64,000 bases of DNA from Candidatus Harrisonbacteria bacterium (lineage in GTDB: Bacteria > Patescibacteriota > Minisyncoccia > UBA6257 > UBA11618), in the NCBI GenBank assembly GCA_016867415.1, contig VGJO01000001.1, forward strand, positions 148,312 through 212,311, given 5' to 3'. Each line of letters starts with the position of its first letter. The first letter of the stretch is position 1. Both the position numbers and the translations under genes were made by a program. Shown here piece after piece: positions 28,915 through 30,418 of the stretch. The notes under the pieces were generated by a model. It searched no databases. It was not told the DNA's origin and was given only the letters and a program-made list of their open reading frames with translations.

Positions 28915-30418
28915 ATTAAATGATCTACGCACAGCTTCCGCTACGCGTGCCTTGTTACGACTTCGTCCATGTCACCGATCTTACCCTAACCCCACGAATG
29001 TAAGGCTTCAGGCACTACCGGCTCCCTTGACGTGACGGGCGGTGAGTACAAGACTCGAGAACGTATTCACCGTGGTATAGCTGACCCACGATTACTAGCG
29101 ATTCCGGCTTCATGGGGGCGAGTTGCAGCCCCCAATCTGAACTGGGGTCGGTTTTTTGGGATTGGCTCCACCTTGCGGCTTGGCGACCCTTTGTACCGAC
29201 CATTGTATTATGTGTGTAGCCCAGGGCATCAAGGGCCACGCTGATTTGACGTCATCCCCACCTTCCTCCCCCGTTAGGGGGCAGTTTCCTGTGACACTTG
29301 TAACACAGGATAGGGGTTGCGCTCGTTACCCCACTTAAGGGAACATCTCAAGACACGAGCTGACGACAACCGTGCAGCACCTGCCCAACCGTCCTTGCGG
29401 ACCACACTGGTTTCCCAGAGTGTTCGTTTGGGTTTCTAGCCCTGGTGAGGTTCTTCGTTTGTTGTCGAATTAAACCACATAATCCACCGCTTGTGCGAGT
29501 CCCCGTCTATTCCTTTGAGTTTTAGCCTTGCGGCCGTACTTCCCAGGCGGTTTACTTAACGCGTTAGCTTCGCCACTTCGAGGGTCGATACTCAAAACAG
29601 CTAGTAAACATAATTTAGGGCGTGGACTACAAGGGTATCTAATCCTTTTTGCTCCCCACGCTTTCGCGATTGAGTGTCAGGAGTACGCTAGTTACATGCC
29701 TTCGCCTTTGGTGTTCCCCACAGTATCAACGGATTTCACCCCTACTCTGTGAGTTCCAGTAACCTCTCGCATCCTCTAGATTCGCCGTTTCCACCGCTGA
29801 CTCAGGGTTAAGCCCTGAGATTTTACGGCAGACGCGCAAAACCACCTATTCGCTCTTTACGCCCAATAAATCCGGATAACGCTCGGGGCCTTCGTATTAC
29901 CGCTGCTGCTGGCACGAAGTTAGCAGCCCCTTATTCCTATGGTACTATCAGAAAACTTTATCCCATAGAAAAGCAGTTTACATACCTAAATACGTCTTCC
30001 TGCACGCGGCGTCGCTCGATCAGACTTTCGTCCATTGTCGAATATTCTCGACTGCAGCCACCCGTGGGTGTACGGCCCGTGTCTCAGTGCCGTCGTTGAG
30101 GGTCAGCCTCTCAGCCCCCCTACCCGTCATAGCCTTGGTGAGCTATTACCTCGCCAACTAGCTGATGGGACCTAGGCCCCTCCTTTAGCAGCTTGCGCTT
30201 TTACTCTTGCGAGACTATTGGGATTTACCCCGTCTTTCGACGAGCTATGCCCAACTAAAGGGTAGGTACCAAGGTGTTACTAACTCGTTCGCCGCTAACA
30301 TTTTTTCATCGTTCGACTTGATGTAATCGCATCTCCCTCTGAAAAAAGTTCGCTCGACTTGCATGCCTTATCCACGCCGCCAGCGTTCATCCTGGACCAG
30401 GATCAAATCCTCAGTATA
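28915..30418 (-). rRNA. 16S ribosomal RNA (unlinked; no 23S or spacer tRNA follows); 3' tail lacks CCUCC anti-SD
   Basis: reverse complement contains GTTTGATCCTGGTCCAGGATGAACGCTGGCGGCGTG at 5' end, GTGCCAGCAGCGGCGGTAATAC, TGTACTCACCGCCCGTCA, ...AGTCGTAACAAGGCACGCGTAGCGGAAGCTGTGCGTAGATCATTTAATG at 3' end. Confidence 0.9.

Follow-up and report, generated by a model that had tools for sequence, protein, structure and literature searches.

A conserved A/U-rich tail replacing the anti-Shine-Dalgarno sequence on a stand-alone 16S ribosomal RNA gene of Candidatus Harrisonbacteria

A 64-kb stretch of the genome of a Candidatus Harrisonbacteria bacterium (Parcubacteria), hereafter the window, to which all coordinates refer, carries a full-length 16S ribosomal RNA (rRNA) gene whose 3' end lacks the CCUCC found in the anti-Shine-Dalgarno sequence (anti-SD). 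Pairing of this sequence with the Shine-Dalgarno motif (SD) of messenger RNAs (mRNAs) is the textbook route to start codons, and few stretches of rRNA are as highly conserved as the anti-SD. From evidence that consists of DNA sequence throughout, we consider it very likely that this is a functional 16S rRNA from a monophyletic group of Parcubacteria, in which the anti-SD was lost once and its place was taken by an equally long, conserved tail rich in A and U, start codons are chosen without SD pairing, and the 16S gene stands as a unit of its own.

The gene occupies positions 28913..30418 on the minus strand and matches the Rfam model RF00177 over model positions 1-1533 of 1533 with 1396 bits, far above the gathering score of 50 and without truncation; the first-pass annotation of this DNA, which left the strand unstated, had placed it essentially correctly at 28915-30418. 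In the ungapped alignment to the model, the 3' tail (28913..28926, minus strand) reads AGAUCAUUUAAUGA in place of GGAUCACCUCCUUA, and when RF00177 was re-run on the 3' part of the gene, GGAUcACCUCCUUu of the model was set against AGAUCAUUUAAUGA of the window, gapless and with high posterior probability. The CCUCC at positions 1535-1539 (E. coli numbering) has become UUUAA (28920..28916), all four C's being replaced, and the 13-14 nt after helix 45 contain no CCUCCU, so that the full-length alignment bears out the earlier observation of a tail without CCUCC. Helix 45 (GGCACGCGUAGCGGAAGCUGUGCGU; 28927..28951, minus strand) is paired in the Rfam alignment and keeps its GGAA loop, and a small hairpin, GAAAAGAAAAG...UUUUCUUUUCUC (28883..28914, minus strand; -12.4 kcal/mol in the minimum free energy (MFE) fold), lies directly 3' of the tail. 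The 16S gene is real and intact, and the remainder of the molecule looks functional, one marker being a compensated change in the pseudoknot of the 530 loop, where CUGCUAAC...CAGCAGCAGCGG gives a U505-A526 pair.

The 530 loop as a whole (29901-29930, minus strand; CUGCUAAC...GUGCCAGCAGCAGCGGUAAUAC), with U-A instead of the G505-C526 pair, mismatches the universal 515F primer. The gene also has an insertion of ~32 nt near its 5' end (around 30305-30340) and no group I intron; such introns interrupt the 16S gene in several relatives belonging to the clade (L206 502-861, L223 12684-13123 and L250 11336-11609).

Relatives were fetched by their 530-loop signature, so the sample is unbiased towards any tail. 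The signature is present in at least 120 genome contigs, nearly all of them from metagenome-assembled genomes (MAGs) of Parcubacteria/Paceibacterota, and among the matches listed L037, at 82.7% identity, and L052, a MAG of Wolfebacteria at 79.6%, are the closest in 16S. The label Candidatus Harrisonbacteria, a taxon within the Parcubacteria group, is given by NCBI to two proteins of the genome (P0001 and P0121), one of which is encoded in the window. The tails of the closest relatives are GGAUCAAUUAAAC, AGAUUAAUUAAAU, GGAUUAAUUAAUU and GGAUCAUUUAAUU; a few other relatives, including a complete Nealsonbacteria genome, have other non-CCUCC tails (UCUAA, UAACA, CUACA, UUUCC), and the more distant Magasanik-, Uhr-, Doudna- and Kerfeldbacteria retain GGAUCACCUCCUU. 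In a neighbour-joining tree computed with the tail left out of the alignment, all sequences with non-canonical tails form a single clade, which fits a single ancestral loss of the anti-SD. The loss, at first taken as peculiar to one genome, is clade-wide and has been published, as discussed below.

Helix 45 followed by GAU[CU]A[AU]UUAA occurs in at least 120 metagenome contigs. Across 101 distinct sequences among the matches listed, positions 12-14 of the tail, which the search pattern does not force, carry A (1.46 bits), C/U (1.08 bits) and U (1.40 bits); the next position holds 0.69 bits, and from position 16 onward the information is ~0.2 bits. The conserved tail is 14-15 nt long (consensus GGAUCAAUUAAAYU), the same length as the E. 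coli GGAUCACCUCCUUA, although the rest of the 16S is merely 75-85% identical across the sequences that share it. Since the conservation ends 14-15 nt after helix 45, the mature 3' end very probably lies at its usual position. A longer mature end that would reach a CCUCC, the reservation attached to the first-pass annotation, is unlikely on the same ground, the 101 related trailers being distinct sequences. Downstream, a CCUCC-like run first appears in the stem of the terminator, ~435 nt off and past a mobile-looking repeat. The contrast between conserved, unforced positions and background bases beyond them argues that the replacement tail is under constraint and not simply decaying, and would indicate purifying selection on it, for example through protein contacts, 3'-end processing or factor binding.

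SD motifs upstream of start codons in the window are at chance level. Among 54 starts, taken from the gene calls of public assemblies with a few obvious open reading frames (ORFs) added where calls were lacking, two (3.7%) have GGAG or GAGG at -20..-4, compared with 12.2% of random window positions and 2.1 +/- 1.9% of shuffled upstream sequences. The duplex energy with the canonical anti-SD over the 25 nt upstream is -2.66 kcal/mol, against -2.40 +/- 0.22 for shuffles and -4.53 for random positions. The near-absence of SDs noted at first pass holds, as does the statement that A-rich stretches precede the starts: A makes up 33-52% at each position from -20 to -1 (26% over the whole window) and G about 12%. 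The mean MFE of 60-nt segments centred on the starts is -4.95 kcal/mol, compared with -9.4 to -10.1 inside genes. The motif AAAAATACAAGC (at most one mismatch), the 3' flank of an intergenic repeat family that had been said to stand often before starts, is indeed enriched, with 8 occurrences against 0.67 expected, but it lies directly 5' of the called start in ~4 of the 54 genes, so that "sometimes" is the better word.

With no anti-SD for an SD to pair with, ribosomes must pick start codons without SD:anti-SD pairing, and two routes may serve. Start codons could be found within A-rich, G-poor and weakly structured RNA, and for about a fifth of the genes the mRNAs might be leaderless or nearly leaderless, transcription starting at or beside the AUG. 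The second route is suggested by the upstream regions of 425 ORF starts of the clade, in which the top 5-mers are TATAA (82 vs 38.8; z = 7.5) and ATAAT (z = 5.5) and, measured from the start codon, the 3' ends of -10-like hexamers peak sharply in two ranges, -8..-5 and -12..-9. Of the 425 starts, 100 (23.5%) have such a hexamer with its end at -12..-5; shuffles give 46.2 +/- 6.2 and a control distance gives 31. Transcription usually starts ~7 nt past the -10 box, so boxes placed 5-12 nt before start codons are the signature of leaderless or near-leaderless mRNAs, which may occur clade-wide. Parcubacteria with canonical tails have a weaker -10 signature (16.1%; 46 vs 32.4 +/- 5.3), with SD-like motifs at 10.5%; compared by tail type, SD-like motifs precede 13.8% of starts in canonical-tail and about 6% in non-canonical-tail genomes, a weak discrimination with crude ORF calls. 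The contrast is weak because Parcubacteria that have an anti-SD also use SDs little, and SD-independent initiation may have preceded the loss of the anti-SD.

The 16S gene stands alone. In the whole 64 kb, of which 28.9 kb lie 3' and 33.6 kb lie 5' of the 16S, Rfam finds no 23S or 5S rRNA, and neither Rfam nor ARAGORN finds a transfer RNA (tRNA), 23S or 5S between the 16S and a hairpin at 28460-28478, which confirms the initial claim that no 23S or spacer tRNA follows. Upstream, ~283 nt from the 16S 5' end, lies a promoter-like site, TTGACT-16 nt-TATAAT (30701..30728, minus strand), that matches TTGACA-N16-TATAAT at 11 of 12 positions and would serve as the promoter. The leader (30486..30513) and the trailer (28733..28760, 153-180 nt beyond the 16S 3' end), both on the minus strand, can form a putative RNase III stem of 28 unbroken pairs, 4 of them G-U; in other bacteria, RNase III cuts such leader/trailer stems. 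The longest leader/trailer helix of 28 bp compares with 11.1 +/- 1.4 for shuffled trailers (maximum 16); the longest-helix test was used because the RNAduplex energy of the stem (-53 vs -48 +/- 6 for shuffles) is uninformative. The trailer strand of the helix is followed by a 228-nt repeat and then by the hairpin at 28460..28478, a bidirectional terminator-like element that is found on both strands and is common to the 16S unit and the convergent gene of a release factor (RF1). The 16S would thus be transcribed and processed by itself, with its own promoter, 28-bp stem and terminator, apart from the 23S. Of 52 clade loci whose sequence runs on for 3 kb or more past the 16S, 2 have a 23S after it, as do 2 of 32 loci of canonical-tail Parcubacteria; Rfam agrees on the 29 loci to which it was applied. 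Unlinking is therefore general here, irrespective of whether the anti-SD has been lost.

Other explanations have to be weighed against this reading. The conserved A/U-rich tail could be a new anti-SD that pairs with an A/U-rich upstream motif (e.g. UUAAUU or AGUUUAAUUG), SD-type docking being kept and its code changed, which would suit both the conservation of the tail over 14-15 nt in an otherwise divergent 16S and the over-representation of TAATT (57 vs 35.3 +/- 5.4) and TTAAT (44 vs 35.3 +/- 5.1) at -20..-1 in clade genes. However, the same-sense control AATTA is as enriched as TAATT (59 vs 38.6), and with TATAA and ATAAT the strongest of all, the TAATT signal is that of a -10 box or of general A/T richness. 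The duplex energy with the consensus tail over the 425 clade starts (-2.08 vs -2.23 +/- 0.07) is no better than that of shuffles, and in the window the upstream regions are even less complementary to the real tail than shuffles (-1.79 vs -2.41 +/- 0.20). Neither the window nor the 425 clade starts yielded an upstream motif at SD spacing that would pair with the tail, so that we rejected a new SD of this kind, and Amin et al (2018; PMC6107228) found no organism with a variant tail matching a variant SD; a re-coded pairing is highly improbable. Neutral decay of the anti-SD after SD use had ceased, leaving a present tail without a function of its own, overlaps in mechanism with the reading that we prefer and differs from it solely on whether the tail is constrained. 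It sits well with the low SD use of canonical-tail Parcubacteria (~10-14% of starts SD-like) and with the differing tails of the other anti-SD-less members of the clade, but within the WUUAA group the unforced tail positions hold 1.1-1.5 bits and the next bases are at background, and we regard decay to a functionless tail as unlikely.

The tail could also be an artefact of a chimeric assembly, a pseudogene or a minor rRNA copy, a working 16S with a canonical tail and a linked 23S lying elsewhere in the genome, of which 64 kb are covered. Assemblies do break near the 16S: contig L129 ends at 28645, L125 begins at 28505 and L126 begins within the 16S. Another contig, L130, tracks the window to 28732 and then continues into rpoA-rpsD-rpsK-rpsM, joining RF1 to rpoA rather than to the 16S, whereas longer contigs carry rpoA-rplQ-rplM-rpsI. 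Against this, the window sequence derives from JGI metagenome contigs and recurs in ENA and Logan assemblies, same-species contigs having been recovered by exact-protein look-up alone. The ENA contig L125 equals the window from 28505 to 44756, including the whole 16S and its trailer, and the JGI contig L131, from a different sample, is identical over 27269 to 30001, a span that takes in two thirds of the 16S as well as the trailer, the terminator and the gene of the release factor; three assemblies agree exactly on the 16S plus trailer. The alternative L130 junction is explained by the hairpin-forming 228-nt repeat between the 16S trailer and the terminator (28505..28732; fold z = -4.8), of which the rpoA-rplQ spacer at another place in the genome (L255 10744-10971) is an inverted copy with 100% identity. 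L130 results from a mis-join or else represents a true inversion isomer formed across this exact repeat, and the alternative joins suggest a possible inversion polymorphism; we accordingly rejected a chimeric window on account of this junction, which leaves the unlinked call unaffected. In either arrangement a protein-coding region follows the 16S (the alternative leads to rplQ-rplM-rpsI), never a 23S. The full-length match with compensated changes such as U505-A526, the promoter-like site with the 28-bp processing helix, and the occurrence of the same tail type in at least 120 other contigs likewise speak against an artefact, to which we give the least credence of all.

Several points nevertheless weigh against a single loss of the anti-SD followed by SD-independent initiation. 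A ribosome without an anti-SD does not explain why well-placed, strong SD-like motifs persist (two to three in the window), and in the clade such motifs at -16..-5 occur in 25 of 417 ORFs (~6%) against 9.6 +/- 2.8 expected. The leaderless signature comes from relatives with crude ORF and start calls, and in the window alone it is not significant and underpowered (9 of 54 vs 7.4 +/- 2.4 shuffled). The processing stem is a prediction, as are the mature 3' end and the transcription starts, and with evidence from 64 kb of the genome a second 16S copy is possible elsewhere. Finally, loss of function alone does not account for the conservation of the tail.

The SD-bearing starts of the window number two or three, and strong SD-like 5-mers at SD spacing exceed chance, since a rough estimate gives ~0.2-0.4 expected in the window. 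The best SD of the three, GGAGG ending 8 nt before the ATG, belongs to an ORFan gene in a type IV pilus cluster (36231..37103, plus strand; hypothetical protein at NCBI). Another, with GAGGAG ending 8 nt before the ATG, is that of a hypothetical gene at 46929..47639 (minus strand). The third depends on preferring the internal ATG at 47799, 6 nt before which an AAGGAG ends, over the TTG at 47724 that is the database start of a hypothetical gene (47724..48452, plus strand). The three had been proposed as probable imports, a view that finds no support in the window: they are not compositional outliers (|z| <= 1.4 for guanine-plus-cytosine content (GC), GC at third codon positions (GC3) and codon usage), and none contains a Pfam domain. 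A search of 5.8 billion proteins retrieves the 36231 protein itself and no homologue of it, which leaves no donor to name, and a homology test of import gives no answer. In the clade, SD-like ORFs (AGGAG/GGAGG-type; loci L135-L254) are spread over 20 of 74 loci and exceed their locus mean in GC by 3.6% (p = 0.001), which fits a foreign origin, but is confounded with local G-richness and imperfect start calls; they could also serve another function or be a start-calling artefact.

That the conserved replacement tail serves a function in its own right across a large clade of Parcubacteria is a possibility that we put forward tentatively and hold to be doubtful. It might, for example, dock a protein or an initiation factor on the platform of the 30S subunit, or help to determine how the 3' end of the 16S matures, in a way that suits initiation without leaders and SDs. 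The window encodes ribosomal protein bS21 (45868..46080, plus strand; Pfam PF01165, 30.8 bits vs a cut-off of 27), in other bacteria a platform protein that adjoins the 16S 3' tail, and the endoribonuclease YbeY (48537..48917, plus strand; Pfam PF02130, 51.8 bits), which in other bacteria matures the 16S 3' end. The sequence upstream of the bS21 gene (rpsU), 5' of 45868, is ataattcaaaaacttaatttattcactcta and contains no SD-like motif.

The release factor beside the 16S (27416-28156, plus strand) has 246 amino acids, with an RF1-like PKT motif and GGQ; domain 1, at the N-terminus, is absent, the Pfam PCRF match starting from profile position 98. Its ORF begins directly after a repeat element, with no in-frame upstream extension and no frameshift site. 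A test based on SD-dependent prfB frameshifting was ruled out here, as the protein is of the RF1 type (PKT motif) and the upstream ORF is bL31. The 228-nt repeat belongs to a family of intergenic repeats of ~120-230 nt that share 60-80% identity and fold into long hairpins of very high stability (z = -7.2 and -4.8), whose members lie at 1341-1462, 27295-27415, 28505-28732, 30939-31058, 45285-45404 and 55865-55987, with a partial one at 17405-17463; they terminate in AAAAATAYRAGC, sometimes directly 5' of a start codon. Three more families of short intergenic repeats are present: a 53-nt repeat upstream of genes (9309-9361, 18218-18270, 32885-32937 and 39470-39522), a hairpin repeat TCATCCTGAA...TTCAGGATCCAG after genes (30818-30852, 35998-36032, 42767-42801 and 50229-50263) and a repeat TGTCATTCCGG...GAATCCAG (13436-13477, 16225-16264, 38476-38517 and 46248-46275).

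Elsewhere in the window, two tandem tRNA-like sequences 3 nt apart (16942-17012 and 17016-17088, plus strand) have low Rfam scores of 35.9 and 39.7 bits; ARAGORN calls solely the second, as a tRNA-Phe with the unusual anticodon AAA, and a normal tRNA-Phe(GAA) lies at 42108-42180 (minus strand). FtsZ (53696-55720, plus strand) has an N-terminal extension of ~195 amino acids ahead of its tubulin/GTPase domain, the Pfam match starting from residue 196 of 674. Within the minus-strand gene 62144->64000, tandem 12/18-nt repeats at 63406-63645 encode a Gly/Ser-rich tract and place many GGAGG in the mRNA sense strand. The GC skew is persistently negative window-wide (C > G on the plus strand, to -0.35) and ~85% of the genes are on the plus strand; because of this strand bias, minus-strand genes come out as the top codon-usage "outliers".

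Lineages without an anti-SD reveal how translation can begin when SD pairing is lacking. In practical terms, gene callers built on ribosome-binding-site models will misplace starts in such genomes, and SD rules will govern neither the expression of their genes in E. coli nor that of foreign genes in these organisms. The 530-loop change of this 16S mismatches the common 515F primer, and since the 16S is unlinked from the 23S, amplicon methods that span 16S, internal transcribed spacer and 23S cannot work. Were the tail functional, the clade, together with its residual class of SD-like genes, would be a natural model for the re-purposing of the anti-SD tail after SD pairing was abandoned.

Initiation on leaderless mRNAs occurs in Actinobacteria, Deinococcus-Thermus and archaea, where the anti-SD is retained and SDs are used for operon-internal genes. 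The present clade resembles these systems in that 23.5% of its genes have a -10 box whose end lies 5-12 nt ahead of the start codon, a likeness drawn here from sequence only and mainly from relatives. In Bacteroidia, according to the parts of Jha et al (2021; PMC7797042) and McNutt et al (2023; PMC9976891) on which we draw, the canonical anti-SD is kept and hidden in a bS21/bS18/bS6 pocket, and rpsU has a strong SD for autoregulation. As far as those parts of the two papers go, SD-independent initiation, A-rich upstream regions, rare SD motifs and the presence of bS21 are common to both systems, whereas the 16S of the window lacks CCUCC and its rpsU lacks an SD; it works like the Bacteroidia system without being a member of it. 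Closer in kind are the 128 organisms of other phyla without a consensus anti-SD described by Amin et al (2018; PMC6107228), which generally lack SDs too and show no match of a variant tail to a variant SD; the portion of that paper used here, which also cites Lim et al (2012), names some Flavobacteriia (Chryseobacterium, Elizabethkingia, Riemerella, Blattabacterium), Mycoplasma and Carsonella. A 13-14-nt tail without CCUCC, mRNAs without SD motifs, no compensating variant SD and a phylogenetically clustered loss are shared with these organisms; they differ in belonging to other phyla with independent losses, and here a large environmental clade conserves the replacement tail itself.

For this lineage, the two headline traits have both been described before. 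Brewer et al (2019; bioRxiv 10.1101/705046) list Patescibacteria among the clades with unlinked rRNA genes, the definition being a 16S-23S distance above 1500 bp or the lack of a downstream 23S; this describes the 16S of the window, as it does 50 of 52 related loci and 30 of 32 loci of canonical-tail Parcubacteria. Nothing material differs, the unit being here also bounded by a promoter-like site, a 28-bp helix and a terminator. We found no further literature on SD usage in Patescibacteria beyond Tsurumaki et al (2022; RNA 28:1041; PMC9297842), who, in the main text of their paper, detect the anti-SD motif in only 48% of Parcubacteria 16S genes, presume that SD helices are not formed in the others, and note that the affected lineages overlap those without uL1. 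The window, from the same lineage and with the same lack of CCUCCU after helix 45, is an instance of that observation. That main text reports the absence of the motif and does not describe the replacement tail, the extent of its conservation or how starts are marked on the mRNAs. What the present data appear to add to it, namely that the replacement tail is conserved and that a leaderless signature extends across the clade, is modest, and overall the window is a clean, assembly-verified example of a 16S rRNA that has lost its anti-SD and stands apart from the 23S.

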